From Catajapyx aquilonaris (Eukaryota): a DNA stretch of 64,000 nucleotides. Shown here one piece after another: positions 1,280 through 25,843 of this stretch. A program made the position numbers and the translations under genes. The notes beneath the pieces are model-generated. The model worked only from the letters and a program-made list of their open reading frames with translations, was not told where the DNA came from and searched no databases. Position 1 is the stretch's first letter. Each line of letters begins with the position of its first letter. The stretch lies in NCBI GenBank assembly GCA_000934665.2, contig KZ538551.1, forward strand, positions 62,001 to 126,000, written 5' to 3'.

Positions 1280-1389
1280 CGTCGTCGTCTGGTCGCCCTG
1301 CAACGTAATTATCATTAGAAAAGTACTGATGGAACCAGATGGAACTGTCAGCTATAAACTTAACGAATTAACATCATTACGCACATAAT

Positions 1390-2334: not shown

Positions 2335-4896
2335 TTAAATTGGAGCGGGTGTGGGTACGTTTATGAGAGGCGAGTCCAGTACTTCAGTCGACGTCTGGCT
2401 TGCAGGTAGGGCTTGTATCTGCTCGTTTTGCTCCAGCAGTGATTTGTACAAGTCCTGTACAGACTCGCTGTGCTGTAACGCAACAATTAACAGGTCATTA
2501 CAAATTATATATTTTTTTGGAAACAATTCGGATATCTTATCGTCACTTGCAAGTACAGAAAAACACAATCATGAAATTATCCAAAAATTGAAAACATGAC
2601 CTTTGACTTTTATATCACTTTAATGGCATGTATTTATTTACTTACTTACGTACTTGTTTATTTTAAACTCTATGCTCACATGTAATATTTCAGACCATTA
2701 GAAATGGCATTGCAGACAAACCTGTGCGCCTGGCTGCAACGCTTTCATTAGAGTGTCCATCCTAGCTGGAGGCAGCTTCGCATGGACGTACCAAAGCAGC
2801 TTCAACAAGTGTGCAGTAACATTCTCCCTGGTCAAACCGGCAGAAAAAAACTCGTCGAACACTACGGTGCAAAAGTCCTCCGCCGCAAACTCTTCAGCGC
2901 ACGACGACACCAAGAGGGCGACCAGTGAGTGCAAGAACGGATCCTCGTATGCCCTTTCAGCCTCGCAACTGGCCAACACACCCAGAACCCGCATGAGTCC
3001 GACCCTGTCACGAGTCTTTGCCGTGTGCAGGGTGTAGTACATGGCCAGCGTACTGGCCACGCTGCTTTCCTGCACGTAGGCTTGGTACGCATCAGGTGGT
3101 GGGCCGGAGTGCTCGATAATTGTAAGAGCAGATTCCCGCTCATCAGGTGGCAACTTGCTGTTAGTGAGCCGTATCTGGTCATCAACCATCAACGAGACGA
3201 GAGCTGGAAGGAACTTGCTGACTATCTGGATGTTCAGCTTCGGCTCCTTGAATTCCTGTGAGTTGATCATTTCCCATGAGCCGAGTCCGAGAGACAGCAT
3301 TCGCAGGAGGAGGATCAGCACCGTATTTTCCTGCAAGATCAGACATTGCAAAGTGTTTGTCACAGAATGGAAGTTGAAATCCTTACCCTCGGTAGTCCCT
3401 CCAGGTTGATAAGATGCTGCAATATCTTCATGGCAGATGTTGCCAGGAAGTTGACGGCATATGGATCGCACAAGATCATCGAGAGGTCACCCAGCACTTG
3501 CTCCTGCCCTCGTTGGATGCTGTCCAGAAACCCTTGCAGCTCTCTGGACCGTTTAACGTCCACGTTCTTCTCCCGTACACATGCGTCCAGACACCAGGTG
3601 AACTTGTGGCATGGATCGACCGATATGATGTCTTGGACCTCCAGGTCATGAAGGGCCATCAGAAGCTCAGCTCGAAGTGTGCAATAGTGGATGTTACGTG
3701 TACGAAGGAACAATGTGCGGAGAAATTGCAGCACCATGTCATACAGCTTCACTTTCGAGCCGATCATATGGGCAAGCTTCTGGACCACCTCGCCTTGACG
3801 TCGCATCTGGAGATATAATCACATTAAGGTTTGTTAAAGTATTTTCACAGAGTATTGCTGACCTTAGGCGACGGGCTGAAGAACAGGTTGTTCAAATTCT
3901 CGTGGTTGAACAGTATAGCATCCTTATCCTTGACGTACTGGTTCAATAGAGGCGACACCTCGTCGCCGAACAGTGAGTGGTGGTCCTTCCAAATCTGGCG
4001 TTTAACCTCAGTGTCGCAGTCGTCGTACAGAGCCTTGTCGCTCACCTGCAACGTATCATTGCTGATTATGCCGTTTTTGTGCAATTTTAGCAACAATTTA
4101 CCAGCACTTTCAGGTACTTGTCTTCAATGTGGCTTATATTCTTGAGGATCCCCATCACCACCGGTCTCAACTGCTTCACCTTGATCACCGGGAAGCTCTT
4201 GACCAACAATTCCTTCAGCTTCTTGTCCTTATCTTTACTGTCGCTCTGTCCCAACTCTCCCACCTTCAGCACCAGCTTGTCCCTCAGCTCCTGCAATTAA
4301 AAAAAACAAATTAAACCCAATCATGAACTCAACATGTTACAACCGACTTTACCTCCATCACGGTTATGTGGAAGTCCAACCTCTGAATCGAATGAAGGTC
4401 AAGCAAGGGCAGCATCGGTCTCAGCGACGGCAACAGAATCCCATTTTCATGCTGAAATGTTGTGCAATATTAACCTGCGAACCACTACACACATCTCCAT
4501 CTCCATTACATAAAAGGCAAAGCTTGTTTGTCTGCCCATGGCAACAGTTTGTCCACGACAACGGTTTGCCTGTTTGTCTGCCCATGGCAACTACACTCAT
4601 CTCTACTTCTATCTCTATCATATAAAAGACAAAGCCTGTTTGTTTGTCCACGGCAACAGTTTGTCCATGACAACAGGATCACCATGGCAACGACGTGTAA
4701 AGAACAGGCTCTGCTGCTAGTTAATTATTCTTCAACTTTCAACAGGCCTTGAGTATGCGTAAAATATTTTCATATGCACCTGAAATTCCTCGATGGCTTT
4801 GAGCGGGTCGTTGCAGTTGGTCAGGGCGTCCCTGAGGTCATCCCTTCCTGGAATCCCAATCTCCTCCAGTCCAATGTCGCCCATAAGACCTGCCAT
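2335..4896 (-). CDS. NELFB: Negative elongation factor B (COBRA1), 7 coding exons: 4780-4896, 4353-4451, 4102-4290, 3863-4045, 3387-3806, 2722-3330, 2335-2472; 584 aa
   Basis: Recognisable segments ENGILLPSL, EVKRQIW, LFGDEVSPLL, LYDMVLQFLRTLFLRTRNIHYCTLRAELLM, VDPCHKFTWCLDAC, QEQVLGDLSMILCDP. All six introns are GT-AG and phase 0; the spliced frame is continuous (1755 nt). AATAAA on the minus strand near 2253-2258. Confidence 0.97.
4497..4720 (+). mobile_element. Non-autonomous Helitron-like repeat in a NELF-B intron
   Basis: ATAAAAG-AAAG-(GTTT)n head present twice, and a 3' end GAACAGGCTCTGCTGCTAG ending in CTAG. Related copies at 23169-23470, 34836-35050 and 38337-38438. Confidence 0.55.
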
Positions 4897-5055
4897 TTTT
4901 TTTTTCTTCCACAACTTCTGCAACATAAGATCAAAATGCAAAATGTCAATGGCACACACTCTGCCATTTTGCTGCATTAAAAAAACTGGTGTGCCACCAA
5001 ACTTACAGGTTCAGAACGTGCCCCTGATATCGTGCGACAAACCGTACCTGCTTAC

Positions 5056-5594
5056 ACCCAGCCAATTCGTCCAGAATTCGCCAAAACAGTGCAAAATATT
5101 CGCAAATTAATGGAAAAGATGACACCGAACCAGCGCCATCTTTGAATCCGAAGCTTCACGAACCGGCCGCTAGAGGCGTTATTCCTACAAAAATCATAAA
5201 ATATTTTAAACATATTTTGCCCCAATTTTAATAATTACTATTTAATTAGGATATGCATCAATGTTAATTAAGTACGCCCTTGTTTTAACTTGAAGCAACG
5301 TTGCCAATTTGCTGGCTCTGGAACAAAAATGGAACAATGGCAGCTTCACATGTTTTGAACTGTGGAAAAAAAAAAAAAGTGTGTTCGACTCACGGTTCTA
5401 CTGAAGGTTCTGCAGAACGCGGGTTAGAACCGGTTAGAACACCTAATGAAGAACAACCCTGGGTCAATTTAATGGAATGGTAGGTACCAGGTATGGCCAG
5501 ATGTGTAGGTATTGTCTTTCATGTCATGCGAATGGCCAATTCTAATTAGTAAGTCTAATAAGACCATGGCATTAATTACAGCGCATGAAGCAAG
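5056..5594. promoter_or_regulatory. Divergent promoter region between NELF-B (5' UTR exon, donor GTAAGC at 5055) and the TFIIB-like gene
   Basis: Head-to-head arrangement. YY1-type motif AAAGATGGCG on the minus strand at 5134-5143; CTCF-like CCGCTAGAGGCG at about 5167-5178. Confidence 0.55.
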
Positions 5595-8500: not shown

Positions 8501-9084
8501 TGAAGAAGCGTGGCATCGATGTTGGGGAAGCCATCAAATCTGTGGATTTAATCCCACACTTTTGCACAGAGCTACATTTCGAGGATAATGTCTCAGGAGC
8601 AGCCGTGTACATTGCTACCCGGGTTGACCAGTCTGGTGAAGTTGCTAAAGGAAGAGGGCCTGTAAGCGTGGCTGTTGCAGCCATATACACAGTTTTCAAG
8701 GTACATTATATGTTAAATATCCATGTGCAATGTCTAAAAATATTCATATGTAACAGCTTTTATTGCAAGGTGATGTCATGAACATGTTCATGAAGAACTG
8801 GCATGTTTACACATACTGAAGTGATTTTGTATTGCCCTGGTTAGTTGTGATCTTGCTACACTTACCACATTTTCTCTCCTCTCTTGCAGTCATTGAAGAG
8901 GTGTGATGATGCTCAGAAGATTGTCGCACATGCAGGCACAAAGGATTCTGTCATTAGGCCAATTTGGAAAGATGTAGTGGCCAAGGAAGAGTTGCTCTTC
9001 CCAAATGGCTATCTTCAGAAGCTTGCAGAGAGCCACGGAGCAGCAAAGAACCCCCACTCCCACTCAGCACAACTGGCAGGTTGA
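5595..9084 (+). CDS. Divergent TFIIB paralogue lacking the zinc ribbon; exons 5595-5906, 5969-6123, 7589-7904 (alternative donor after 7862), 8058-8285, 8440-8700, 8890-9084; ~488 aa
   Basis: All junctions are GT-AG and frame-compatible (1467 nt, no internal stop). Exons 4-6 align to the TFIIB core: YNAMAGACIYVASRLEKQQRTMM vs [37 protein letters not shown] vs [23 protein letters not shown] vs AGVADVTIR. The last two introns lie at the same positions and phase as in the neighbouring TFIIB. The link to exons 1-3 is inferred from splice phase only. Confidence 0.8.
6149..6462. mobile_element. pogo/Tigger-like MITE
   Basis: 21-bp TIRs with one mismatch: CACTGTACCCCCGATTATCCG (6149-6169) and CGGATAATCGGGAGTACAGTG (6442-6462), followed by TA. 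Confidence 0.7.
6510..7089. mobile_element. Tc1/mariner-type MITE with ~155-bp TIRs
   Basis: TA|CAGGGTGGGCG...CGCCCACCCTG|TA; arms 6510-6664 and 6936-7089 are near-complementary; TA target-site duplication. Confidence 0.9.
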
Positions 9085-9231
9085 TCCTAAGAATAAACAA
9101 TAATTATGGAGTATTCAGACACTACTAAAAGTAACGTTTTGTTGTGTGCAAAGGAGATTGGCCAAAAAAAAAAGGGTATTGATTACGACACTTATTTTCA
9201 ACTGAAGTTCTAAGTCAGAAGTGTAACATGT

Positions 9232-9382
9232 AAGCCGCTTTTACATGTGAGGGATGTTGCAACAATGACATATCGCTCAGCGAAAGTAACAATTGTGGTT
9301 ACAATAATATATTTTCACCCCAAACAATTTGTCTCATCGCTGCAACATCGCTGATCAAATCGCTCACATGTAAACGCGGCTT
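9232..9382. mobile_element. Small MITE (possibly PIF/Harbinger-like)
   Basis: 20-bp TIRs matching at 19/20: AAGCCGCTTTTACATGTGAG and CTCACATGTAAACGCGGCTT. Confidence 0.6.
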
Positions 9383-9665
9383 TGTACCTATATTTTTTTA
9401 AAGACTGGAAGCCTATTTGTAGCAGTGATGGGCACCATTCAATTCAAAGCTGAATCAGGCCACATTTGTCCAGTGAATTAAAAATAATTGGATGTGAACA
9501 GCAATGAGAATTGGAAAAATCTGAAGTGTGTAATGAATGGGACTGAATAAATTCAAAGGGAGACGTGGAGGGCTGAATAGTTGAAATACGTACGGAGCAG
9601 TGAATGATGCCCATCTCTACTTTTTTATCAATCTCATACAAAGAAAATGTGTAAAATGTACACCA

Positions 9666-9763
9666 GTGTACTATGGGCGCCAAAAGAATTGACCGGAGTT
9701 GATGGGCATATAGCGCCATTTACCCATCAACTCCGGTCAATTCTTTTGGCGCCCATAGTACAC
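9666..9763. repeat. Perfect 41-bp inverted repeat with a 16-nt loop (mini-MITE or hairpin)
   Basis: Arms 9666-9706 and 9723-9763 are exact reverse complements; internal TA|CTATGGGCGCCAAAAG termini. Confidence 0.9.
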
Positions 9764-9799
9764 AGAGCACATGGAGTCGTAATGGTAATAGGCCTACAT

Positions 9800-10300
9800 G
9801 CATTTTTCCTCCTTGGGTCATGTTAAGTCACTAATGATATTAAGTAAAGATGATCATGCAAAGTACATAACAAAAAAGGGGAATACAGAAGTATTCATGA
9901 TATAGTTCCCAAATTGCTGTCAATTAATTAAATTGTTTTCCATATAATTGTTTTGCCCTTAGATTTTAGATGCATTCATGTTTAATAATACGTGCTTTTT
10001 TCTACCAGGAACATGTTAATAAGTCACTAATGACATAAGACTGATCATGCAGAGTACAAAGTAATACGAAAGAGTTTCCAATGTTTCACCAATTGTCAAT
10101 TAATCGAAATGTAATTGTTCTGTCCTTGTTTTTAGATGCGTTCAGGTTTAATGGTGCTTTTTCCTCCCAGTGACATGTTAAGTCACTAACAACGTTAAGA
10201 AAGACTAGTCACGCAAAGTACAAACCAAAAAAGTGCAATGCAGAAGTATTCATAATATTTCCACAATTGCTGTCAATTAAATGTTTCTCATATAATTGCT
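9800..10300. repeat. Three degenerate tandem copies of a ~160-190-bp unit
   Basis: CATGTTAA(..)GTCACTAA...TCATGCAAAGTACA...TGTCAATTAA recurs at about 9819, 10012 and 10174. Confidence 0.75.
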
Positions 10301-10687
10301 GTAATTTGCATTATTTTAGCCTGCACTATTTATATGGCGTCGAGCATTTTATTTTCATAAGATGTATGCTCACTCATTAGATACAATCATGTACCTGAAT
10401 TGAATAAAATAATTTTTCAGCAATTAAGTGAAATTTTTGAATGACGTAGTTTGTCTAACCCACGCCAGATGGCAGCACTTTCCTGACAGGTGACACATCC
10501 TGGCACCAAAGCCCACCATTTTCTCCGAACTCGGGCCCGAGAAAAGATCAACACATCTGCAGCGACACCGCCATGGGCGCTGCAATTGTGGGCAATGCAT
10601 TGCATACGGATCCGCCCCGGGACACAGCGCCTCTTCTGGCCGAATAGTAAACGCATCTGAATTTACGCAATCCGTGGCCTACTTGTA

Positions 10688-10732
10688 TGACGTCACGATT
10701 GGAAAAATCGGGGTTTGATAAAATGGCCGCCG
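10688..10732 (+). promoter_or_regulatory. TFIIB proximal promoter motifs
   Basis: CRE palindrome TGACGTCA (10688-10695), inverted CCAAT box ATTGG (10698-10702), and YY1-type AAAATGGCCGCC overlapping the start codon. Confidence 0.55.
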
Positions 10733-13331
10733 TCGGCAGGTAATTTCTGAATCGAACGCTTCGAAAAATCCGGATTTGGACCCGGTTCTGGCCTCGTTTG
10801 GGTCTGGAAATGGTCGGGGGTCGGGCACGGGCGGGTCTAGCCACCAGGGGCGGCCAGTGGGCTGCCCCGGGGGCCACGGGCGGGCTGGGAAATGGGGAGG
10901 GGGAGTTCCAAAAGTTGTGAAATATTAATTTTGTTCTATTATTTAATGCTGCATATGAATTTATGTTGCAGCCGTGACACCCCGAAGGTATGCTGCTATG
11001 CCCACCCGGATGCACCGCTGATTGAGGACTACAGGGCCGGAGACCAGATTTGTTCCGAGTGCGGACTTGTCGTTGGGGACAGGTGCGTACCGCAGTTACA
11101 GCCTTTTACGACATGTAACGCAACTGTACTTGTAGGGTAATAGATGTGGGGTCTGAATGGAGGACTTTCAACAATGAGAAGAACAACGCGGATCCATCTC
11201 GTGTTGGCGGGCCTGAAAACCCTCTTCTCAATGGATCTGATTTGTCCACCATGATTGGGCCCGGGAGAGGAAACGCTTCGTTCGATGACTTTGGGGTGTC
11301 CAAGTACCAGAACAGGAGATCGGTAAGTTCGTTTACAGCTTGAGCGTACGTATGTATTGCGCTGTTTCGTTGATTCCAGATGAACAGCTCGGATCGTGCG
11401 CTGGTTAATGCATTCCGAGAGATCAGCAGCATGTCTGACCGGATTAACTTGCCCAAGACAATAATCGACAGGGCCAGCAACTTGTTTAAGATGGTGCATG
11501 ACGGGCGGAACCTGAAGGGCCGCAGTAACGATGCCATCGCCACCGCATGCCTCTACATTGCCTGCAGACAGGAAGGGGTTCCACGCACTTTTAAGGTAAC
11601 GCCCTGAGTAAGAATCGCGATCGGTACTTGACGGCCTGATTATTTGCAGGAGATCTGTGCTGTGAGTAAGATCAGCAAGAAGGAGATTGGCCGCTGCTTC
11701 AAGCTGATCCTGAAGGCGCTTGACACAAGCGTGGACCTTATCACCACTGGGGACTTCATGTCTCGTTTCTGCTCCAATCTTGGCCTGCCTCCAATGGTCC
11801 AGAGGGCAGCCACGCACATTGCCAAAAAGGCAGTCGACCTCGACATTGTACCAGGGAGATCGCCCATATCAGTGGCCGCTGCCGCAATATACATGGCATC
11901 GCAGGTATGGACCACACAGTTACGCTGGGGGGGGGAATAGGATGCAATAATGAGTCAACCCACGTAAGAACAGTTTCGAACAGAGGATTCATGACAAATA
12001 AACAAAGTCATTGTCATTTCTGATGAATCCTTTATTCCAAACTTACTAGTGTGTTAGGTGGCAAAAGTTTCTGGCCTATGCTCCAGGGTTGATGGAAATT
12101 AAACCACGGTAGTGTCATAAATGGACAAGTTTGTGCTCGCAAATTGAGTCACACACTTGAATAAACAACTTCAGTCAGACATGCTGCACCATTTCACATA
12201 GTATTGAAAGTCAAGTACGGAAAGGAAGGAATTACATCCAGTGCTATCAAACAGGAACTGTGGCTTCGAAAAGAATGACCATCCACCATGAGGTGATACC
12301 TGGCCCTCAGTGGCTGTTACTTGTTTTCAAATCTCAAAAAATACCTTCCAGATATATAGAAAAAATGAAAATTAATATAGTGCAGAAAACTAAACGATGA
12401 CAAGACTTCGTCACGTGTACTCCTATTGTTGCATGAGAACAAAGCGATGGCAGCAGATCGTAATTTCGTTTTCCGAACTGTAGTTGCAGGAGGCATTTCC
12501 AGACAAAACTTGGAACGATTTTTCCAACGGTATTGTTTGTTTAATTATTCGGAGATGTAAGGAATGTGTTGTAGTATGAGATGACAATACTGAAAAATGA
12601 TACTGTTGTTTTATATCCGTCACACCTTGAACACAGTCAGCCGGAAACTTTTGGTTCCTACCTTGTATTTCAAATGCAATGTTAATGTGTCATAATAGTT
12701 GCAATTTAATTATATTCACATTGTAATCATACTGAACCCTCTATATCAAAAACCAGTTTTAAATATTATTCAAAAGAAATTATTAATGATAATCGTCATA
12801 AACTAGAATTAACGCAATCTTTCTAAACAAAATGGGCAGCACTGGTGTAGTGGTTAGCGCCACATACTTCCACCTCTGAGGTCCCAAGTTAGATCTCTGG
12901 ATCGGACAGAGGATACTTCTGTGGATAGAGTTCCGATGGGTTCTCTCCATGTTCGCATGGGTTTTCTCGGGACTCCCGTTTCCTTTCACTATCAAAATCC
13001 ATCACAGAGCAGGCAGTGATTAAAGTCGGTTCACGAAAAGATGATCCCCTAAGAGGCTCAAGGAGGCCTGTCACGGGGTATCCATTATTATGACTTTGTA
13101 AACATATGCCATTTTTGTCAGTTGACAATCGCATAACACTGTCCGATTTTAATACCAATGTAATTTCAGGCGTCGGAGGACAAGCGGACACAGAAGGAAA
13201 TCGGTGACATCGCAGGCGTGGCTGATGTCACGATCCGCCAGTCGTACAAGCTCATGTATCCAAAGGCTGCAGATCTGTTCCCGGAAGACTTCAAGTTCGC
13301 AACGCCACTGGAACAGTTGCCTCAAATGTAG
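10723..13331 (+). CDS. GTF2B: Transcription initiation factor IIB; exons 10723-10739, 10972-11082, 11136-11322, 11380-11595, 11650-11904, 13170-13331; 315 aa
   Basis: Zinc ribbon (CYAHPD...[22 protein letters not shown]), B-reader/linker (DPSRVG), both cyclin repeats and HTH ([17 protein letters not shown]). All introns are GT-AG; 948-nt continuous frame. Confidence 0.99.
12834..13000 (+). mobile_element. tRNA-derived SINE with a V-SINE-like core, in TFIIB intron 5
   Basis: A box TGGTGTAGTGG (12843-12853) and degenerate B box GTTAGATC, then TGTGGA...GTTCTCTCCATGTTCGCATGGGTTTTCTCGGGACTCCCGTTTCCT, resembling the V-SINE central domain. Confidence 0.7.
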
Positions 13332-13724
13332 TGTGTTTAAAAAGAGTGTGCACAAACACTTTTTTTTTCCATTTCTATGCATAATATTAATGGTGTAATA
13401 ATGGGAATTGCACTGTGTCAATTTTTACAGTATTTCTAAGGGTTTGGTCAAATTTATTAAGATCTGAAGAGAGTCTTTTGCTCTGTGGGCTTTTGGATGG
13501 ATTACGCAGTTTTTTATATATAAAAAATTGTTGGTTGACTGGAAGACAATTTTAGGGTTTAGTTACATGTGTTGACTAGTTGTACTTTCATTTCGGGCAC
13601 TGTATCACTTGTGGGGGGGGGCGCAACATAATAATAACTTGTTGTTAAAGTACATGTCCATTTGTTTCACACTCATTTTACCTGCATTCATATCCGTTTT
13701 TGATCCTTCAAAAATGTAAAAAGT

Positions 13725-13960
13725 CCGAATTTGGCGATCCGAATATTTATAGTCTTCCGAACGTGTGCAATTCACCGAATTTGGCGTCGACTTTGAGCAG
13801 CGAGATCGAATGAGATTGACTTTTCGTGAGTTTTTAAATTAATTTTTCTGACTACCCAATGTATTTCTAGATTGTAATTTGCTGTACTTGTTTGCAGTGG
13901 AGGGGCGGATTTGCTGGCAGACAAGGTGAAGAAACGTCAGGTCTTGCTGCCTGTTGGCGG
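13725..13960 (+). pseudogene. Degenerate copy A of URM1 exons 1-2
   Basis: TTGGCGTCGACTTTG (start ATG changed to TTG at 13781), TGACTTTTC|GTGAGT donor, same intron 1 end, and an exon 2 copy from 13898 reading GGADLLADKVKKRQVLLP. Confidence 0.9.
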
Positions 13961-14003
13961 CAGTTTGGTTGACTTGACTTGACCGAGTTTAACTGATGCT
14001 TTT

Positions 14004-14151
14004 GTATCAACAGTCCAAAAAGAATTGTCCCGTCGCGTCGAGCGGGCAGCCACGCGTCAGGATGAAAGGAATCTTGAAACTGGTTCCTTTCATCCTGACG
14101 CGTGGCTGCCCGCTCGACGCGATGGGACAATTCTTTTAGAACTGTTGATAC
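14004..14151. repeat. Near-perfect 68-bp inverted repeat with a 12-nt loop (MITE-like hairpin) near the duplication junction
   Basis: Arms 14004-14071 and 14084-14151 are complementary with only a few mismatches; TA-flanked TCAACAGT...ACTGTTGA ends. Confidence 0.9.
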
Positions 14152-14164
14152 CATTTACCCTCTT

Positions 14165-14402
14165 TCCAATCAGATGGACAGAGCAGAACATGGCCTATAG
14201 AACGTGCTCCTATAGAGAAGGAATTATGCAGTCTGTACATGATGGCTTGATTATTCGCAGGAGATCTGCGCCGTGAGTAGCCACCATGAGGGTGGCGCTG
14301 CGGACAGGCTGATCCTCAAGGTTCTCAACATAAGTTTCATGACTTATTTTTTGCTCCAATCTTGGCTCGCCTCCGATGGTCCAGCCAGGCACATTGCCAA
14401 AA
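14165..14402 (+). pseudogene. Decayed TFIIB fragment (exon 4 acceptor, intron 4 end, deleted exon 5)
   Basis: TGATTATTCGCAG|GAGATCTGCGCCGTGAGT...GCTGATCCTCAAGG...TGCTCCAATCTTGGC...CACATTGCCAAAA is collinear with 11637-11828 but carries frameshifting deletions. Confidence 0.85.
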
Positions 14403-14417
14403 ATGAAAAAAAGAAAA

Positions 14418-14665
14418 GCAAATTCAAATTTGGTGCCATAATTTCAGATTATTTGGCGACCTGTTCAATAGTTGTCATTTGGCTGAATTTCATGCAATTC
14501 GCTCCTCAAATTTGGAGACTTTTCGTGAGTGTTTCTTTCTTCAGTTTTTTCTAGTTACCAAGAGTGTATTTCTCGATTGTAATTAGCTGTACTTGTTTGC
14601 AGAGGAGGGGCCGAATTTCTGGTCGACAAGGTGAAGAAACATGTCAGGCCTCGCTGCCTGCAGAA
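14418..14665 (+). pseudogene. Degenerate copy B of the URM1 promoter and exons 1-2
   Basis: AATTCAAATTTGGTGCC...TAGTTGTCA matches 17664-17726. The ATG is lost; the GTGAGT donor and TTTGCAG acceptor are kept; the exon 2 copy from 14603 reads GGAEFLVDKVKKH. Confidence 0.9.
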
Positions 14666-14729
14666 GTCCGATTGGTTGATGTTGCCGAGAGTTGCTTTGT
14701 GACCATTTCCCCCTCTTTTTCCCATTCAG

Positions 14730-17336
14730 ATGAGCAGCTCGAATCCTCGCCTGGCTAATGCTTTACAAGCAATGACCAGCGTGGCCGATCATATCAACCT
14801 GCCCAAGGCAACAGTCGACAGGGCCGGACACTTGTTTAGGACCGTGCGATTCAAGCATCGCACCAAAGACGCAATCGCATTCGCATGCCTTTACCTTGCC
14901 TGCAGACAGGACCACGTCCCCTGCAGCCTTCATGTAAGGCTAATTATGCGTAAAAGTATACAACGGGGTCACATTTAATAATAAATAGCATTAAATATAG
15001 GTATTTATAACTAATAAATTATTGTTTGTCATGTGTAAATCACTCATGGAATTAGCTCCTGGAGAAGAGCTAGTGCAATTGATGGCCTGATTATCATTGC
15101 AGGAGATCTGCGCTGTGAGTAGGATCGACAGGAAGGAGATTGGCCGCTTCTACAAGCTGATCATGAAGGCTCTCAACATCAGCGTGGACCAGGTGAACAC
15201 TGGGGACTTCATCGCTCGATTCTGCTCCAATCTGGGCCTGCCTTTGATGGTCCAAAGGGCCGCCACACACATTGCCGAAAAGGCAGTTGAACTCGGCATT
15301 GATTTCCACTCGAGATGGCCCACAACAGTGGCCGCCGCTGCAATATACATGGCATCGCAGGTATGGATCACATGGTTGTGCTGGGAGGGTACAATTTAAT
15401 ACCAGTGTTAATTGCAGGCTGATGTATCTGTAAGCTTAATTGGGGATGTTGTACCAAGTAATGATGGTTGTGGGGATATTGTTAAGGAGAAAGGGGGCAA
15501 CACCAAAGTCTAACTGGTTGGGCTACGTACCGGCAAGGACGAACCGCAGGGGTTTACGAAGCCTGCGTGAATTACAAATGCATTAACTTACCAAAATCAA
15601 GATAGTTTCAGTGGTTGAAGGGTGCAGGAGGACTGATGACATGAAGATCGAATGGAATTTATTCATACGAACATGATAGAGTTATCGTATCTAAGACAAA
15701 TTCAATAATATTTGATGGTTGGCAACAACAGTCATAATCGAGTCACTCAATTGTTGACGCCTAAGGAGGATACCGTGGAAACTGAATGAAATATAATAAC
15801 AAGTTGAATGAATGAAATGGTTATTTAATAATAATGTAATGAAAATAAGGTAAAGCATATATTTATTTAAGCAGTTAGCGTACGTAATTCCGCATAAGGT
15901 GTAGAGATGATATTTACACAAAATAATATTCTAAATCATGTGTGACTATTGTCACACGTGGATTCCAGTTGCACGCATTGCTGCTCATAATGAATTATTC
16001 ACTTATAATTTTATTTCGGGGTTCTATTACGTCCTTGGGTTTTTTGTGTAGGGGATCGGGCACTGCAGCACGTCGGGCCGGATACGTGTTCAAAATATGA
16101 AGGCTGTACTTGCAACGGGTTTTGAGATATGCTTGACAGAAAAACTCGTCTCAACAAGAACAAGGAAAATTTTCATTGTTGTTTTTGCACGAGGATCTTA
16201 CTTATAGGGACTATCATCAAGTGGGCCTTTAAAATTATTAAATATTCCAATGGAGTCTCACACTCCAACGTGCGTGAAAATAACATGACATACATGATCA
16301 ATAGCTGTAAATAAGACCAGGATTCCGAAATATGGTTTTCCTGATGACCGCCATTTTTATGAATTAATTACGCGCTAATGAGAGCCTAAAAACTTGGGGT
16401 CTGGGGCGTTTTACGTTCAGGAAGGGATGTAGTATCAGCACCGTAAATGGCATCTTCTCCGCCAAAAGTGAAATATTCCGTCACTATTTCGGACGTTCCG
16501 ACCCCACTACAAGTAAGTTTTCTAGAAATAAGGACTTATCTTCTGCCTGTAGGTTGTCTGTCTATTCTCACGTTATGGTTCCTTCACTTATGTATGGTAG
16601 TGAAGCGTGGGTCTGGTCAGATATGCATAAGAGTAGGGTGTTGGCTACAGAGATGCGTTATCTCCGGGCTGTTTGTGGGGTTACCAAGTTGGATAGGATT
16701 AGGAATGAGGAGATTTTGGAGAGGTGAGGTTAAAGATAAGGTGTGTAGGTCTACTCTGAGGTGGTTTGGCCATGTGGAGAGGATGAAGGAGGAGGAGATT
16801 GTGAAGAAGGTTAATTTGGGTGGAGTAGTTGGTAAGAGGGGCAAGGGTAGGCCTAGGAAGACATGGTTGGACCAGGTGGGCCAGTGTCTTAAGGGTGTTG
16901 CTAGTGTTAAGCCGAGACGTTCATGTGTCAATAGGACCATGGACGTGGCTGAGGCTAGGGTTGTTTGTTTGGATAGGTGTAAATGGCGTAGGTTAACTAA
17001 TGGGTAAATATGTCTGAGGATAAGGTGATGTCTGAGGTGGGGGGTGGGACAGGTTGTTTTTAGGTTTATTCTCATAAGTTTTATTAGTTCATATGTTGGG
17101 TTAGCTTGCATCTCCCTTCATCGCTGACTACCCCTCATAGGGAAATGTCGTGATGTTGTTGTTGTTAATTGCAGGCGTCTGAAGACAAGCGGACACGGAA
17201 GGAAATCTGTTACGTCGTTGGCTTGTATGACGTCTCTATCTGCCCTTTGTACAAGCTCATGTATCAGAAGGCTGTAGATCTGTTCCCGGATGACTTCAAG
17301 TTTGCGACGCCTTTGGAACAGTTGCCTAAAGCATAG
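14730..17336 (+). CDS. Core-only TFIIB paralogue; exons 14730-14933, 15103-15360, 17175-17336; 207 aa (could be a young pseudogene)
   Basis: Copies of TFIIB exons 4-6 with intact splice sites, only in-frame length changes (-12, +3, 0 nt) and a stop at the homologous position. The ATG is the first codon of the exon 4 copy. Confidence 0.65.
15420..17162 (+). mobile_element. Truncated RTE-clade LINE insertion (probably with deleted or nested interior) with a 14-bp TSD
   Basis: RTE C-terminal motifs YGSEAW...[22 protein letters not shown], then after a frameshift [10 protein letters not shown]...[12 protein letters not shown] (about 16590-17007). (TGT)n tail; TGTTAATTGCAGGC repeated at 15406-15419 and 17163-17176. 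Confidence 0.85.
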
Positions 17337-17777
17337 TATTAAAGAGAGAGTGCACATTTATGTATCACAATTGCACAACAACAACAACAACAACTTTTTT
17401 TTCGTTTTTTCGTTTTAAATATGGCGTAACAATAAGTGGCCCTACGCCAAGAACTAATAACTACCGGTATTAGCTCTTGCCCACGCTTGTTACACCATAT
17501 TTGCTGGCAATCCCACCCCAAATATTATTTGGGGTGAGATTGCCAGTTCTTACAGTATTACCGAGTTTGGTCAATTATGCAGATAAATAATGACAATGTC
17601 AAAGTACACGTTCAGTATGGTTTCATTTCACCCCCATTCATACCCTAATTAAATTATCTAGCGAATTCAAATTTGGTGCCGAAATTTCAGAATAGCTTTA
17701 GTTGGTGACATGTTCAGTAGTTGTCAGTTGCCTGAATATGTGTACCATGTCATTCATCACGTGCTCTCAAATCCAAT

Positions 17778-19878
17778 ATGGCGTCGACTTTGGGCCTCGA
17801 AGTTGACTTTTCGTGAGTGTTTTCCTTCAATTTTTTCTCATTACCAAGTACATTTATGGACTGTAATTAGCTGTACTTGTTTGCAGCGGAGGGGCCGAAC
17901 TGCTGTTCGATAAAGTGAAGAAACACCAGGTCTCGCTGCCCCTAGACGACCAAAAACAATGTGAGTCATGCCCCTGACAAATGGTCATGAACGTTTCCTT
18001 TTGCTGCTGAAAATATTAATTAAAATATCGGATTATATTTAATTGCGTTAAGTTAACTATTGCATTACATTTCATTGAATTAATTGCGTGAAATTAGATT
18101 ACTTACTATGTTAAATTTAATTTCATTGAATTAATTATATGAAATTACACTACTTACAATGTTAAATTAATTCCAATACGGTTATTCCAATATTAAATTA
18201 AACCATATCAAATTACATGCCACATTACATTATTTACAATGCTACATTAAATTCAATTACATAATTAAAATATTACATGAAATTCCATTGCATTTATTAC
18301 AATATTGAAATAAATGTTAAAATAAACAACATTAAATTACATGTTACATGACATTACAAGACAAATTAAATTATTGCATAAAATTAATTACATTTATTAA
18401 AATAATAAATTAAGCACAGTTGTAAAGGAAATAATGCGGTCCTGCCTTGTATGTCATGATAACTCGAGATTAAGTTTGCCATACTTTTCAGCTCTAAAAT
18501 CTGTGTTAGCTAGCTATTAGCGCAAAAATGGGATCCTCTGACTGCCACAACTTTCCAGCGAGCTGTTAGTAATGCCATCACTCCGCCTAATCACGTTTGA
18601 TGTCACCGGAACCATCCTACGCTTTCGGAAGAATCCGGCTGACCAGTATGCGGAGACGGCTGCCGCATTTGGCCTCGTTGCCGATCGCAGTCTAATGTTA
18701 TCCAGCTTCAAGTCAAGCTTCAAGAGAATTAATGAGCAGCACCCTTGCTATGGGGCGTTGACCAGCTTGGCTTGGGAGGACTGGTGGCGCAAAGTGGTCC
18801 TGGGCACGTTTCATGGTGCAGGGGTCGAAGGTCAGGCGTTGGGCGAGGTGGCCCAACGTTTGATCAAGTTTTATCACACCTCAGATGCTTGGGAGGTGTG
18901 CCCCGGGGCTCGTGAGATACTAGAAAAGTCACGGAAACATCGGCTTGAGGTTGGGGCGTTGTCCAACTTTGACCCGAGTTTGGACCCGCTTTTGGGCACT
19001 ATGGGAATCAGACAGTTGTTTGATTTTGTAGTCACGTCGCATGAAACTAAGTGCGCCAAACCAGGCTCAGCCATTTTTATAGCCGCATTAAACAAGTCGA
19101 AGTTTAATCTCAAGCCATCAGAGGCTGTTCATGTTGGCGACAACTACGAACTGGACTTTTTAGGTGCCAAAAAGGCAGGGTGGCAAGCACTGCTGGTTAG
19201 TCAGAACGTACCTGATGGAATTTCTAGTGAGCACCAGAAGTTTGTCTTTCCCTCACTGCAAGAGCTGTCCGCACACTTGTTCAGGTTGGGGATCCCATTT
19301 TTGCGATACACAGGTCGAAAGCTAGAATTTTACAGTTGTATTTGCTTGTTTCAGGGACAATTCAGCACTTACTGGTGTGGATTAAGGACAATCTGTTGCG
19401 GCAGAGGCCGGAATTGTTCATCAAAGGTGATTCGGTGTAAGTGTTAGCTGCGGAATCTTCTAAAAACATGCGATTAATACTAGGAAAACTTGTATCTTTT
19501 TTTCCCTGAAAATCTGGTCAACTCTTGGGTATTGTTGTTGCCAAGGTTTTTTTATTGAATCAGATTCCAATGTACACAAATGGGTTGGAAATATATTAAT
19601 TTACATACAGGGTTTTTATCGCTGTGTGTTGTATTCACACATTATGAAGTTCAACTTGTGCACAATGTTGTTGTTAATAAAATGTCTGCTATTGTTGCGT
19701 AGGAGGCCTGGAATACTTGTGCTGGTGAATGATTGCGACTGGGAATTGATGGTGAGTAGTTACCTGTGCATTGAAGGGATTTGCAATTAACAGATTTAAA
19801 TCGTTTCAGGGCAATTTGGATTACGAGCTCAAAGAAGGTGACAAGATATCGTTTATATCGACTCTACACGGAGGATGA
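17778..19878 (+). CDS. URM1: Ubiquitin-related modifier 1; exons 17778-17812, 17887-17960, 19355-19436, 19703-19751, 19810-19878; 102 aa
   Basis: Spliced product [102 protein letters not shown], with the URM1 signatures GGAELLF, RPGILVL.ND.DWEL and ISTLHGG. Missed by the ORF track because the exons are short. Confidence 0.98.
18521..19305 (+). promoter_or_regulatory. 16-bp perfect inverted repeat pair bracketing the HDHD3 exon (candidate long-range pre-mRNA stem)
   Basis: CGCAAAAATGGGATCC (18521-18536) and GGATCCCATTTTTGCG (19290-19305). Confidence 0.65.
18572..19385 (+). CDS. HDHD3: HAD-like hydrolase (HDHD3/Reg-2 type) nested in URM1 intron 2; likely exon 18559-19284 spliced to 19355 (stop 19383-19385); the unspliced ORF runs to 19447
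   Basis: HAD motifs LITFDVTGT (I), LSNFD (II), KPGSAIF (III), [18 protein letters not shown] (IV). CAG|GTTGGG donor at 19284/19285, where recognisable similarity ends. Confidence 0.9.
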
Positions 19879-21875
19879 GTCAGCATTTATTTTGTATCAG
19901 GGAATAATAATATTGTAATTCACATAATCTGCGGATACAATAATAATATAAAAAAGTGTGAGAACCCACAGCTTGCGATTTTTTTTCATCCTCGGTGACA
20001 ATTCCAACCTGTTCTTAAATGGTCCAGTGAACTCGTGTTTCTTTTCAACTCTTCATGAGGTTAGAACCATGTCCCCTTTGGCAGGGAAAACTTCCCTTCA
20101 AGTTTTGTGTTAAACTTCTGCAAACTTTATGAGCCTACTTGACAGATTTCCCAGGGGGTATTCCAGAGAAGAAGGAAGGAGCAGTCAGTGGAAAACAGGG
20201 ATCTCTCGCTGTACCGAGGAAAAAGAAGAAGAAGCACTAGTTAGCATTTCTAGTACAGTTATACTTTTCTTCACACCGAGGATAACAACAATGTGTGGAG
20301 GAAAAATATATATTTTCTGTTCCCTCGGGGTCCATCGCGTAGTGATAAATGAGGATCCATGATGGATTGACGTGCCTCGAGACAGAGAAGTCGAAGCAAA
20401 AGGGGCTGGTGATTAGAGGCTGGCTGGCCTCAGCAAATATGCTCCGATGCAGGGGGCTGGCTGCTGCCATGACGACGCCGACGACGCCATCCGTCTTGTC
20501 TCTTTCTCTCTGAAGTCTCCACAATAGCCTCCTACGATTTCCTTCAACCTGTGTGATCCAGATAAACAATTTTAAGTCGCTTCGGAACAAATTATTATTT
20601 TGATGTATTAATAAAAAATTTTTGAACATAACTCTGTGCATAAGGGGATGTAGGAGGGGCGGCCTTTTCTTTATCGACGTCGATATACCGAGGGGTTGAC
20701 TCCCTTGACATTTATGATCTTCGACGCCCGATATTTTTACTCTCGAAAGGTTTGAGAGAACTTCAGGCGCCTTTTTTGTATTCATTTAGCAGCCATATTT
20801 TCCACACCTGATTTAAGTGCTTCTGATCCTATTTTTTTTTGTACTGAGATTGTATATGACAAAAATATCATCTACATGGCGACTAAAGTCTGGATTGCAT
20901 TGTTAGCTGCCAGAACAAGAGCATTAAAAATTGATGCTCCATAATAGGAGACTCACCAACTGTGATGGTTTTGCTGTGTAGCTAATGCTCTAGATGGCCT
21001 ACAGTTTTCAGGATAATTCTATTATTGGACGACCTACTTTTGATTAGTACATTGAACAAACAGATCAGTAACCCTGGGGGTGCAGTGTCGTCAAGGAAAT
21101 GGAGAGAGCCGTTCTTTATTATTATTATTATTAGCGGCGGATAAGATTTGGTGCTCGTAGATTAATCACGTGCTGCTGTATACGTGCAGGGCTTGTCAAA
21201 AACTGGCAGCAAAATCCTTTTTTCCTCTCCAAAAAATAAGAAGAAGAGGAGAATGCAAAGAAGAGCAAAATGGGATCCCTGTATAAGAAAGGGAAAGGCG
21301 CGTCCTTTTCAAATCTCCCTTGTCTCCCGCGATGTGCGGAGAAAAGGAAGGGGACAACAAAAGGAGGAAAAAGCCGAGCAGACGCCTTCGTGTCAGACCT
21401 TATCACCAAGAGAAGCAACCCAAAGGCCCGACCCTCCCTTCCACATCCTTCATCACACCTGATGACGCTGTAACTTAAAGACGTGAGACTCGTCTTTCCG
21501 GAACCGGCTCACTAATGCAAAGAGTGGGGCCGGTTCTGGAACGGGTCCGGTTTCTCGACTGCAGTGTTATCTGTGCCTATAACCTGGAGGTGGAGACGCT
21601 GCATTGTTTGCAGGCTTTTGTCCCCCCTAGGGAGGCGAAGAAATCCGCAAATCCGTCCATGTCCCCAGAGGCACACTGCTACTGCAATGCAGGCCTATTG
21701 TTATCTCCTGCCCTTAATGAATGCAAGTGACTCCTGACGAGAATGGTTGAGTCTGCCTTCGACTTTCCTTGAGCCTCCAAATTGGCGGAAACTCTACAGT
21801 TTCTGATTCGCTTATCTTTAAACCCAAGGAATCGAGGAGAGAGAAACCCCCCCTCCCAGTTTATATCAGTCCCAT

Positions 21876-21926: not shown

Positions 21927-22469
21927 CTCTTTATTTCCAAACAATGCGCAAGTCCACTCTGAAATTGAGAAGCCACAATCTGGGGGACTCTCAGCTTCAC
22001 CTCTTCTTTTTTTCTTCTTCTTCTTTCTTCCTCTTCACTCCATAACACCGACAGTCTCTTGGTTGATTGCAGAACAAACACCGGCGGCTTCCTCTCACTC
22101 TCTCGAGAGACAAAGAGCCAGCTGAGTTCCGGAGCAAGAAAACAGACCCCCTTTTGGTTGTTCCGCACTCCAGAAAACACGTCTGGAGACGCTCCTATGG
22201 GGGGGGGAGAAAAAATACAGGACTATTAGACACCCAAGCATTGTACAAATGATAGAAGGTCGAGGGTTTCATCGTATACTACGCTAATCCCCTTATTCTC
22301 TCCGTCTGCGTATATGTCCCTGTTGACTAGTCGCCTATAGGTAGTCAACCATATAGTTTTCACTTTCCCTGTTCAACAATTAAGAGGACAACGGTCTGAG
22401 AGGGTGGGACCCACTTCACTTGATTCACACGCGCTGGTTAGAACACCCTGGTGGGCTTTGTCAAACGCA

Positions 22470-23470: not shown

Positions 23471-25732
23471 TAAATCTGATAGAATTGGCTAGGCCATATG
23501 CTCATCACCAACGTGCATGTAGTTACTGCTTTCCCCCTGAGAGCGGCGGTACCTGCGAGTCACCTGGTTGTGGCATATTATACTGTATCAAATTGGGGGA
23601 AGTGTTGCCAAGTATGGCCAATTGCTAATGGAGTGAAGACAACTTGTGGTCAAGGCACTGAAAGGTGAATCCGTCGCACATAATTTGGCAAAAGGCTATA
23701 ATAATAATAATAATAATAAGTATGACAGTGAATATGAAACAACTTTAATGAGAAGTCCCTCCGATTTTACCACGTACTACTATTCTTCACTCATAGATGG
23801 CGCACATTCCCTCTGCACACTCCTGCCACCTTCAGGCCGTGCGATACTATATCAGGTCGGACAAACATCAGACGGAGAGAATAATTATGGCAACGTTGCT
23901 GGAGCAAGTTGAGGCCAAAAGGTGCTGATTTCTTCACATTTCCCGTTCTCCTGGATTTTTCTTCCTCCGTTTCCTCCAGCAGCCACGGTGGCAGATTTGG
24001 CTGGAAGGCAATAATGTTGGGGTGTGGGTGGGTGGCTGGATGGGTGGGGTGGAGGAGAAAGAATGTTCGCTGAGTAGCAGCAGGCACAATCCCCCCCTTT
24101 GGGGAAAAGGTGTGTGTAGGGAGGGAGAGAGAGAGGTGGGAAAGAGAGAGATTTAGTGGGCCATCTGAGATGGAAGCAAGGGTCCAATGGCCGGGCCTGG
24201 CGCCTCGTTAGCACTGCCCAGAACACCATGGAAGAGAAATCCTCCCTCAGGAGGGGGCGGAAACTCACTCGACTTCTTCAAAGCTTATGGACTACCTAAC
24301 ACCCCCTCATCTCATTCCTAAATTGCAGCATGACTCGCTCAAACGCAGCCGGCGCACTCTTGTTTACGGTTTTGCTCACAAGGGTGCGACACCTGCAGGG
24401 AAATACGTCAGGAGAGGGGGGGTTGAAGCCAATGTGACGAACCGTGACATAGGGTGGTGGTGGGGGGGAAATATTACGCCATATAGGAAGTCTGTAAAAA
24501 AGGAGAAATCAAGCCTCAAAGCCTTTTGCATGTTCAAGTAGAACAACTCCATTAGAAACACAAGAAATAAAACAGTGATGCCGAAGCTCTTGGGCGTCCA
24601 TTTGGTATGGGGGAACTAGAAAAGGGAAAAGGGCTTTAAAGGTAAAATAAAAATGAGGTTTACGCCAGGCTGCGCTTACTCCCAAACTCCACTCGGGCTT
24701 CTCTTAAATGGTTAAAAGCAGGTTAAGAGGGACCGTTAGGAGATGCGATTGAGTAGTTCGGTTTTAACTCCTCCAGATAAAACGGAATTCATTGTGCATA
24801 ATAATGGGAGTGGTCATATAAGATCATGGGATTTCTTTTCTTTTTTCCCCCCGTATTTTCCAAGTCAATAAGTGAAAAAAGCAGAGGCGCAAAAAATGGA
24901 ATAGTACAGGGTGTTACATTATTCGCAATCGTCATTTTATTAAGCAGTTATGCCGATTTTCAAAGGGGGAAAAAAATTAACAAATTATTATCTTTCCAAT
25001 CCAAACGCACGATTACACAAACGATGCGACAAATCAAAAAATTCGTAAGCCAATATTATTAGCAATAATTGTATAAAATCCCTTTTTGACCGCTTAAAAT
25101 TGACAATTACATTGTAACATTTTTACAAAAAAAATGAACAAATCGAACAATATTATCCTGGAGCTTTACATAAACCACAATCACTTTAACAATATGAAAG
25201 CTTTTTTTTTCATAATAGTCAAATTGCCCGAATGCAAAGGGCCAAAATGATTTTGTCCTCAACTTTTTTTGGCGAATGGTGCAAAAGGCGTCGACATATT
25301 GCCTGCATTTTCTGCCTTAATCTTTTTGTCTTGTACAGTACCAGACCAATTCAGCACACCCTGTAGCAGGTGATGCTTAGGGCCAATTAACTTCTTGAGA
25401 GTGTTGCTTTTGAAGTGAGGAAAAGCAGTTAGAGAGAGAGAGAGAAGTGTGTCTCTCCAGCTCTCTTCTGGCGCCATCAATTGAATAATAATTCCTCGTC
25501 GCCTTGTAATTAGAAGGGCAAAGATCCAGCTCGTTAGTTCATTACGAGGCCTCAGATTACTGCAATACAAGTGGATTCGGCTGCTCCCAGTCGTAACTAA
25601 AGAGCAAAGGAGCTCCGTAATTGTAGATTATTAAGCGCTTCATCCAACCTCTTTATCGTTAATAGTTCATCCGATCCCCTCCTGATCATGACCGCGTTCC
25701 AACAATGGTTCACGTCATTATTGCACCGGCGT

Positions 25733-25843
25733 GGAAATGAGTATAAGGCAGCAGACCTGAAGCTCAAATTAGCCTCCAAGAGAGGTCCTCCGGATGACCA
25801 CCTTCACTTGATCATAGATCTCTTGGAGGCTAATTTGAGCTTC
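25733..25843. repeat. Palindromic dispersed repeat family (TTGGAGGCTAATTTGAGC / GCTCAAATTAGCCTCCAA)
   Basis: Further copies at about 33556-33790 and 51547-51646, with fragments near 26035 and 37120. Confidence 0.75.

Follow-up and report, generated by a model that had tools for sequence, protein, structure and literature searches.

In an arthropod, intron 2 of the URM1 gene carries a hydrolase coding block on the same strand, and a perfect 16-nt inverted repeat brackets this block at both ends. The favoured reading, to which we give a probability of roughly 40%, is that the arms base-pair with each other over a long range in the pre-mRNA and that the resulting stem loops out the nested candidate exon and favours URM1. 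A stronger claim, that one unit toggles between URM1 (a sulfur carrier and ubiquitin-like modifier) and a Reg-2/HDHD3-type HAD phosphatase through this single 16-bp RNA stem, is unlikely. The repeat lies within the window, by which is meant the whole 64-kb stretch of DNA that was analysed, and its parts are the following.

18521..18536, + strand: 5' arm, CGCAAAAATGGGATCC, intronic, of the perfect 16-nt inverted repeat
19290..19305, + strand: 3' arm, the exact reverse complement of CGCAAAAATGGGATCC (match 16/16)
18518..19308, + strand: 19-nt form of the repeat with one mismatch (18518-18536 / 19290-19308), block included, from the repeat search

The initial annotation had described a perfect 16-bp inverted repeat with unique arms. 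Its coordinates and letters were confirmed at all 16 positions, and exact copies of the arms occur only at these two sites in the window. When up to three mismatches are allowed, the 64-kb window yields the two arms and one 3-mismatch match at 63144, for a chance expectation of 0.83 such matches; at two mismatches or fewer, no further arm match is present. In the 19-nt form found by the repeat search, 753 nt separate the two arms, and a TA dinucleotide stands at each outer end of the 18518..19308 span. Alignment of the flanks found no similarity of the arm surroundings past these 19 nt, and a longer, decayed inverted repeat was rejected on this ground. Across 533 windows of this genome, none of the noted stretches contained an arm look-alike, and no stretch resembling the locus was found among the other scanned genomes. 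A search of positions 17000-20500 against Rfam, at E values up to 0.1, returned no family.

The host gene has five exons, and the hydrolase block sits between the second and the third.

17778..17812, + strand: URM1 exon 1, with its ATG at 17778; boundary by inspection
17887..17960, + strand: URM1 exon 2, ending at the RNA-like contig joint from 17960 to 19355
18559..19284, + strand: candidate exon H, 726 nt or 242 codons, from ttccag/C to CAG/gttggg, with no in-frame stop
18572..19285, + strand: HAD hydrolase open reading frame from its own ATG, 238 aa of homology (Pfam, homologues, alignment)
19355..19436, + strand: URM1 exon 3, bounded by the joints 17960 to 19355 and 19436 to 19703; Pfam Urm1
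19676..19681, + strand: AATAAA in URM1 intron 3, the sole canonical poly(A) signal between 19285 and 20400
19703..19751, + strand: URM1 exon 4, start from the contig joint, end by inspection
19810..19878, + strand: URM1 exon 5, ending in HGG and then the stop; by inspection

Judged from its sequence, the block is a HAD hydrolase of the Reg-2/HDHD3 subfamily, with both the fold domains and the catalytic motif residues present. Pfam recognises Hydrolase (E 1.9e-21), HAD_2 (E 4.2e-13) and Hydrolase_like (E 1.3e-9) in the open reading frame. In an alignment with nine homologues, seven residues (D10, T14, S131, N132, K163, G189 and D195) are invariant; for D190 the conservation is at least 90%. The best named homologues are Reg-2-like and HDHD3 proteins, the nearest being 38-43% identical, with 43% the best full-length identity.

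A URM1-like N-terminal exon was found in none of 188 homologues. A loose URM1 pattern does occur in two of the 188, but only elsewhere in the protein, and these two carry no added exon because their N-termini are only 5-6 residues long. The Urm1 domain was likewise absent from all 12 long homologues. A literature search returned no paper joining URM1 with HDHD3, or CG33276 with CG3200, and the sole match for any two of Urm1, Reg-2 and dicistronic was an unrelated plant review.

The reading frames suggest how the block could be joined to its host, and to judge by them it looks built for splicing. It is intronless and has no stop of its own, the hydrolase frame remaining open until 19447. Exon 1 of URM1 ends with two spare bases, and a candidate join from exon 1 to H stays in frame, a fit that chance alone would give one time in three. 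In a candidate join from exon 2 to H, the URM1 frame would stop at a TAG TAA that overlaps the block's ATG. Joined to exon 3, H would meet a stop after 10 codons and give a protein of 247 aa; homologues measure 240-260 aa. The AATAAA at 19676..19681 could serve as the signal for an unspliced H transcript. An alternative donor at 19314 (CAG/gtcgaa), by which the hydrolase would be fused in frame to URM1 exons 3-5, was also considered and set aside as a poor site with a 1-in-3 chance of fitting the frame.

Three contigs at the locus come from X5, the one run that behaves like RNA. One of them joins 17960 to 19355 and 19436 to 19703, both with GT..AG ends; it records the direct joining of exon 2 to exon 3, the block being skipped. 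A separate contig of low depth (4.8) lies within the hydrolase open reading frame, at 18718-19178, and an unspliced contig covers exon 3 and intron 3 at a depth of 2.2. The signal in the open reading frame is possibly not mature mRNA, since the unspliced contig indicates that pre-mRNA or DNA is present in X5, and the contig depths are unfit for ranking the two products. The X5 contigs end short of both arms, of the candidate acceptor and of the candidate donors, leaving the junctions at the block ends outside their coverage. In each of three DNA runs, all made from one sample, 17407-20300 is covered by one contig without any difference. An assembly artefact was set aside on the agreement of these runs, which may themselves be the source of the assembly.

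The placement of the arms relative to the candidate splice sites agrees with that described in the initial annotation. Counted back from the candidate acceptor AG at 18557-18558, the 5' arm occupies the stretch 22-37 nt upstream, in the branch-point zone; at the other end, the first base of the 3' arm is position +6 counted from the candidate donor GT (19285). The claim that the repeat brackets the HDHD3-type block was borne out as well, tightly so at both ends: the 5' arm stops 35 nt before the ATG, and the 3' arm starts 4 nt past the last homologous codon. The 3' arm also lies 50-65 nt upstream of the acceptor of URM1 exon 3. The general branch-point consensus is yURAy, and a plausible candidate adjoins the stem.

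18538..18542, + strand: candidate branch point CTGAC, from sequence inspection and the yURAy consensus

This motif is 18 nt upstream of the candidate exon start and 2 nt from the inner end of the stem. The 5' arm additionally carries an ATG (18528) in good context, which opens a 13-codon upstream ORF ending at the block's ATG. The candidate donor of the block, GTTGGG (CAG/gttggg), is weak; eight other donors in the window, four from URM1 and four from NELF-B, are mostly GTGAGT or GTAAGT-like, with one GTCAGC.

In thermodynamic terms, which give no evidence of folding in vivo, the stem is predicted to be strong and to dominate over the local fold. Its predicted duplex energy is -26.4 kcal/mol, and the predicted mean pair probability is 0.95 in all four folded contexts (intron 2; exon 1 to exon 3; 18400 to exon 3; the whole gene). 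When intron 2 is folded, the stem appears in both the MFE and the centroid structure. As long as the 3' arm has yet to be transcribed, only half pairing is predicted for the 5' arm (mean 0.5), and opening the latter by constraint is predicted to cost 14.1 kcal/mol. The extension by U-G and C-G pairs into the donor, as proposed earlier, is also predicted, with a probability of 0.55 for 18537/19289 and 0.43 for 18538/19288. An outer helix had been proposed as well.

18501..18506, + strand: 5' half of the outer helix, CTGTGT, with its partner ACACAG at 19308-19313

The two halves exist and are predicted to pair (p 0.77-0.99), but the pairing of the flanks is within chance. Shuffling the 21-nt flanks 2000 times reached the observed energy in 385 cases, and the same number of shuffles of the 31-nt flanks did so in 88 cases; among 253 real intron segments, 16 match the flanks in pairing. 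The outer helix was therefore set aside as independent support.

Under the favoured reading, the arms would pair in the URM1 pre-mRNA and a loop of about 750 nt would enclose the whole HDHD3/Reg-2-type block. With the stem closed, the branch-point and acceptor region of the block and its weak donor would be held at the foot of the helix, and the exon 2 donor would be drawn about 785 nt nearer to the exon 3 acceptor; the block would be skipped and URM1 mRNA made. With the stem open, the block would become available and might be joined in frame to URM1 exon 1. Alternatively, the block would follow exon 2, the URM1 frame ending at the TAG TAA over the block's ATG, or it would be transcribed from a start of its own. 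Formation of the stem in vivo, use of the block as an exon and a regulated switch between the open and closed states are inferred. For a choice controlled by the stem, as the initial annotation proposed, the predicted dominance of the stem speaks in favour, as does the exon 2 to exon 3 product expected of a closed stem; the weakness of the candidate donor speaks against it.

A doubtful alternative is that the repeat was left behind by the DNA event through which the block entered the URM1 intron, any RNA effect being incidental. The arms could be the TIRs of a small non-autonomous element that captured the gene, or a palindrome of 26 bp could once have stood here and been entered at its centre by an insertion that duplicated the palindromic GGATCC. 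The near-exact bracketing of the homology, with gaps of 35 nt on the ATG side and 4 nt on the side of the last homologous codon, would suit such an event, and an intronless block without its own stop is what a captured fragment might look like. A perfect repeat is expected of a young DNA-level duplication, and one made of Watson-Crick pairs without G-U suits a recent DNA event as well as it suits RNA selection. The window is also rich in hairpin and MITE-like repeats. TA dinucleotides border a 17-nt form of the repeat; however, TA alone carries little information and fits only when a mismatched terminal base is allowed. A 6-bp target duplication can be read from the arms because both inner ends are GGATCC, whereas inspection found no direct repeats of 3, 8 or 9-10 bp beside them. 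The 64 kb contain no further arm copy save the one chance-level 3-mismatch match, and there is no look-alike among the noted stretches of the 533 windows. Subterminal similarity past 19 nt is absent, the interior is free of transposase and non-coding sequence, and the candidate acceptor, branch point and donor are all inside the supposed insert. No empty-site joint was found in the three DNA runs of the single sample. A former palindrome split by an insert is itself unlikely in view of the scarcity of perfect short palindromes: the window has one with arms of at least 11 nt and none with arms of at least 13 nt.

The probability is similarly low that the repeat is a coincidence, without function and unrelated to the origin of the block. 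Intron 2 was put through 2000 dinucleotide shuffles, none of which produced a perfect 16-mer inverted pair (analytic expectation 4e-4), and to this extent the improbability claimed in the initial annotation stands. Shuffling the whole window gave at least one such pair within 1.5 kb in 3 of 100 cases, and base composition by itself would account for about 450 perfect 16-mer inverted pairs per Gb at spacings of up to 1.5 kb. A second isolated and unique perfect 16-nt inverted pair in the same window (22293-22308 / 23869-23884), which sits around repeat-rich DNA with no evident gene or role, indicates that the shuffle null understates the real background by a wide margin, and weakens that claim. 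Coincidence is further favoured by the post hoc choice of the repeat from a very large scan and by an outer helix no better than chance. Against it stands the closeness of both arms, at 40 nt or less, to the ends of a single coding block, a placement which would be met about once per genome on a rough estimate from the single control pair. Less probable still is a stem that forms but plays another RNA role, either in back-splicing to a circular RNA or as a panhandle damping translation, in which the 5' leader pairs with the 3' tail of an independent HDHD3 mRNA. The upstream ATG of the 5' arm, with its good context and its 13-codon ORF ending at the block's ATG, would suit the panhandle. A circle would carry an endless frame, because the 726 nt of the block are a multiple of three without an in-frame stop. 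Inverted repeats flanking an exon promote circularisation in the cases described in PMC4201285 and PMC4617980, but 16 nt is shorter than the approximately 30-40 nt given as sufficient in human cells (PMC4201285). Furthermore, no backward joint, as back-splicing would leave, appears in the X5 contigs, whose coverage is poor there and stops short of the block ends.

If the loop-out reading is true, it would add to the long-range loop-out stems already known and would provide a compact, easily mutated case in which RNA structure chooses between the products of two genes and not between two isoforms. It would also suggest how a gene landing in an intron avoids disturbing its host, namely by being looped away. 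This genome may contain further nested genes of the same architecture, and recurrence of the stem among them would point to a general rule of nested-gene insulation. If the repeat is an insertion relic or a product of chance, the locus is an ordinary nested gene.

Several known systems share parts of this arrangement. Some nested genes share the first exon or exons of their host, for example at the cholinergic locus, with VAChT in ChAT intron 1, and at the insect Su(var)3-9/eIF2-gamma locus. As in these two cases, the coding block at URM1 lies on the same strand in an early intron and is frame-compatible with host exon 1; neither is known to use a bracketing stem. Pack-type elements are TIR DNA transposons or MITEs that carry captured fragments of host genes. 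The resemblance here lies in a short terminal inverted repeat bounding a host-type coding fragment without its own stop. Unlike Pack-type elements, the repeat at URM1 lacks a clear target-site duplication, subterminal repeats and any further copy in the window, and its interior is fully coding.

Loci that produce circular RNAs through inverted repeats, such as Drosophila laccase2 (PMC4617980) and those studied with minimal repeats (PMC4201285), have an inverted repeat in the introns on both sides of the exon, as the candidate exon has here. The repeats described for those loci are 30-40 nt or longer and often transposon copies, whereas the arms at URM1 span 16-19 nt. In Dscam exon 6, as cited in PMC2724269, one docking site competes for many selectors and activates one exon. 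Long-range intronic RNA pairing would decide exon choice in both systems. Nevertheless, the docking/selector parallel drawn in the initial annotation did not hold: the URM1 repeat is a single pair, its pairing would repress the exon, and the 64-kb window contains no second partner at two mismatches or fewer. The comparison is unfit because of this missing second selector or docking partner.

Closer likenesses are provided by loop-out systems. In human genes, inclusion of an exon is reduced where complementary regions loop it out (Kalmykova et al. 2021, PMC8052449); the complementary regions described there lie in the introns on both sides, as at URM1, and more stable pairs go with lower inclusion. 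Those pairs were defined by conservation and their effect is statistical, and in place of a small cassette the loop at URM1 would enclose an entire coding block of 726 nt. In intron 4 of Drosophila Nmnat, the distal acceptor depends for its use on a stem that surrounds a proximal alternative terminal exon (Raker et al. 2009, PMC2724269). As described for Nmnat, complementary boxes flank the candidate exon at URM1, where pairing would bring the distal acceptor close and lower use of the proximal one, and the choice would change the protein made from one gene. The Nmnat boxes are reported as conserved across Drosophila species and were tested by mutations that disrupt and restore pairing, whereas the URM1 stem is read from one genome, by its sequence and predicted fold. 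The Nmnat alternatives are two C-termini of a single enzyme; at the URM1 locus, the choice would lie between two unrelated proteins.

Intron 2 of URM1 contains both halves of a perfect 16-nt inverted repeat, with CGCAAAAATGGGATCC at 18521-18536 (the 5' arm) and its exact reverse complement at 19290-19305 (the 3' arm). The pair is extendable to 19 nt with one mismatch, and a repeat search placed the spacer at 753 nt. When as many as three mismatches are allowed, the arms themselves and a single three-mismatch match at 63144 are the only copies in the 64-kb window, with 0.83 matches expected by chance. The repeat observation stands: the arm coordinates, the start of the 3' arm at +6 of a candidate donor and the flanking CTGTGT (18501) and ACACAG (19308) are as the initial annotation described. 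It also proposed that the repeat loops out an HDHD3 exon, a closed stem giving URM1 and an open stem HDHD3; the candidate exon for an HDHD3/Reg-2-type hydrolase spans 18559-19284 (+ strand). This interpretation is plausible and partly supported, drawing on geometry and predicted thermodynamics in a single genome, and the probability that the stem would affect splicing around the nested block is put at roughly 0.4.

The host gene was delimited by sequence reading and by contig junctions in X5, a sequencing run that is not recorded as RNA but is classed as RNA-like by its behaviour, and whose contigs miss both arms, the candidate acceptor and the candidate donors.

URM1 exons and the source of their boundaries
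17778-17812, + strand, exon 1 (sequence reading)
17887-17960, + strand, exon 2 (3' boundary from an X5 contig joint; start by sequence reading)
19355-19436, + strand, exon 3 (both boundaries from X5 contig joints)
19703-19751, + strand, exon 4 (start from an X5 contig joint; end by sequence reading)
19810-19878, + strand, exon 5 (sequence reading)

Together, these exons translate to 102 aa with a terminal HGG. An X5 contig of 188 nt (depth 48.7) links exon 2 to exon 3 and exon 3 to the beginning of exon 4, through joints 17960->19355 and 19436->19703 with GT..AG ends, so URM1 splicing passes directly over the block. This product matches a closed stem, but is equally expected of an ordinary intron. 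Another contig, of 461 nt with one base different (18718-19178, depth 4.8), lies inside the hydrolase frame, and a third, of 230 nt (depth 2.2), continues from exon 3 into intron 3 without splicing. Depth over the hydrolase is thus low and looks little above apparent pre-mRNA or DNA background. Three DNA runs from one sample each cover 17407-20300 in one contig, in which no sequence differences or alternative joints were found; the locus is thus genuinely arranged in this way in that sample, possibly the assembly source.

Several other features surround the gene. Just upstream, an open frame whose C-terminus resembles a retroelement tail (16447-17007, + strand) is probably a decayed retrotransposon fragment. 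A near-perfect 43-nt palindrome at 17504-17546 (21-nt arms, 1-nt spacer, 95%), some 230 nt before the start codon, might be an element of the promoter region or else a small foldback repeat. AT-rich tandem and dispersed repeats (18064-18373; periods 51, 31, 22 and 17; GC ~20%) occupy intron 2 over its first third, ahead of the bracketed block. The sole canonical poly(A) hexamer within 19285-20400 is an AATAAA inside intron 3 (19676-19681), and none was found within ~520 nt after the URM1 stop.

Between and beyond the arms runs an intronless open frame (18542-19447) whose ATG at 18572 begins a hydrolase of the HAD superfamily, with Pfam matches to Hydrolase (E 1.9e-21), HAD_2 (E 4.2e-13) and Hydrolase_like (E 1.3e-9). 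Among named proteins, its best matches are 'rhythmically expressed gene 2' of insects and springtails and HDHD3 of vertebrates (33-41% identity), and full-length identity is at most 43% among 1.84 billion representatives. In an alignment with nine homologues, D10, T14, S131, N132, K163, G189 and D195 are invariant and D190 is kept in at least 90% of sequences. Homology stops at ~19285, four bases ahead of the 3' arm, where the frame has no stop; it continues for 54 further codons, through URM1 exon 3 in another frame. Of the features observed, only the missing stop is more in keeping with a spliced exon than with a nested gene that is complete in itself. No Urm1 domain was found in 12 long hydrolase homologues, and no URM1-like N-terminal exon in 188; two loose pattern matches among the latter were dropped, their positions not being N-terminal.

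Candidate splice signals sit close to both arms. Two nt past the end of the 5' arm comes CTGAC (18538-18542), which fits the general branch-point consensus and is a candidate branch point, 18 nt upstream of ttccag|C (18558/18559). The candidate donor at 19285, CAG|gttggg, is weak; the eight other readable donors in the window, four in URM1 and four in NELF-B, are GTGAGT (three times), GTAAGT, GTAAAG, GTAAAT, GTAAGG and, in NELF-B, GTCAGC. The candidate block of 726 nt is exactly 242 codons. A putative joint from exon 1 to 18559 is in frame, adding 16 residues before the hydrolase methionine, while one from 19284 to exon 3 would meet a stop after 10 codons, giving 247 aa from the hydrolase ATG, a length inside the usual range of its homologues (240-260 aa for most). 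Splicing from another poor donor, at 19314, would produce an in-frame fusion of the hydrolase with URM1 exons 3-5. Since the prior for each of these matches in frame is one in three, the joints count as compatibilities rather than evidence. If exon 2 were joined to 18559, the URM1 frame would close after three codons at TAG TAA, whose TAA shares bases with the hydrolase ATG; the same TAG TAA closes a 13-codon upstream frame (18528-18574) that starts inside the 5' arm in good start context.

Folding predictions favour the stem. Its 16 bp have a predicted duplex energy of -26.4 kcal/mol, and the mean pair probability is 0.95 in each of four partition-function folds, whether of intron 2, of the stretch from exon 1 to exon 3, of 18400 to exon 3 or of the whole gene; as equilibrium predictions, these values are no evidence that the stem folds in the cell. 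The stem appears in the minimum-energy and centroid structures of intron 2, and blocking the 5' arm is predicted to cost 14.1 kcal/mol. If the nascent transcript ended immediately ahead of the 3' arm, the 5' arm would be only half paired, in weak local alternatives.

The repeat had been called unlikely by chance, which holds against shuffled sequence: no perfect 16-mer inverted pair arose in 2000 dinucleotide shuffles of intron 2, where 4e-4 are expected analytically, and 3 of 100 whole-window shuffles contain one within 1.5 kb. However, the pair was selected after the fact, and composition alone predicts ~450 per Gb. An empirical control is provided by a second perfect, isolated, window-unique pair (22293-22308 / 23869-23884, 1560 nt apart) in repeat-rich DNA without an evident gene, with no similarity found beyond its 16 nt; real DNA therefore yields such pairs more often than shuffles indicate. 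The proposed outer helix adds nothing, since equally good pairing arises in 385 of 2000 shuffles of the flanks at 21 nt, in 88 of 2000 at 31 nt and, among 253 segments taken from real introns, in 16. Nevertheless, the placement of the arms is unusual, each lying less than 40 nt from one end of a single coding block, and chance is considered an unlikely origin.

We regard a functionless relic of insertion as similarly doubtful. In favour of it, the ends of the homologous region nearly coincide with the arms, the block lacks introns and a stop, the two arms match perfectly, the 17-nt version of the repeat has TA on its outside, and the inner six bases of each arm form the palindrome GGATCC, so that the layout is readable as a 26-bp palindrome into which an insert came with duplication of 6 bp. 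However, just one perfect palindrome in the window has arms of at least 11 nt and none of at least 13 nt. The arms are flanked by no direct repeats of 3, 8 or 9-10 bp and show no subterminal similarity, the interior is coding throughout, and the candidate splice signals fall inside the supposed insert. No further arm copies were found in the window or among the examined stretches from 533 windows of this genome. The predicted stem might instead serve another RNA-level role, which seems improbable, and a small share of the probability is assigned to none of these readings. Elsewhere in the window, several inverted repeats of hairpin or MITE-like form, whose perfect cores measure 21-49 nt, occur at 6522-7077, 9666-9763, 14033-14122, 25759-25843, 45986-46198 and 56815-57007, and also at 41750/41966 and 56192/56257. 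One 16-mer among them forms inverted pairs at two separate sites and so is part of a repeat family.

No look-alike of the locus was found in the other genomes examined, nor any published link of URM1 with HDHD3 or Reg-2. The conserved neighbour NELF-B (COBRA1; exons 4896..2701, minus strand, short introns) is 73-76% identical to proteins from many insect orders alike, which shows that protein collections contain no close relative of this arthropod. Nearby, an open frame at 251-907 (minus strand), with several hydrophobic stretches and a RING-finger-like C-terminus, is likely to be one exon of a gene for a membrane E3 ligase.

Among known systems, the suggested analogy with Dscam docking and selector sites is a poor fit, as there is a single arm pair and no competitor. 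Circular-RNA loci carry longer repeats of ~30-40 nt (PMC4201285, PMC4617980), compared with 16-19 nt here. Genome-wide, human exons that are looped out through pairing of conserved complementary regions show lower inclusion, more strongly with stabler pairs (PMC8052449). The nearest tested precedent is the stem in Drosophila Nmnat intron 4, where boxes lie on both sides of a proximal, alternative terminal exon and the distal acceptor is used only if they pair (PMC2724269). If real, the URM1 stem would belong to this known looping type, with one unusual trait: the looped-out unit is an entire second gene.
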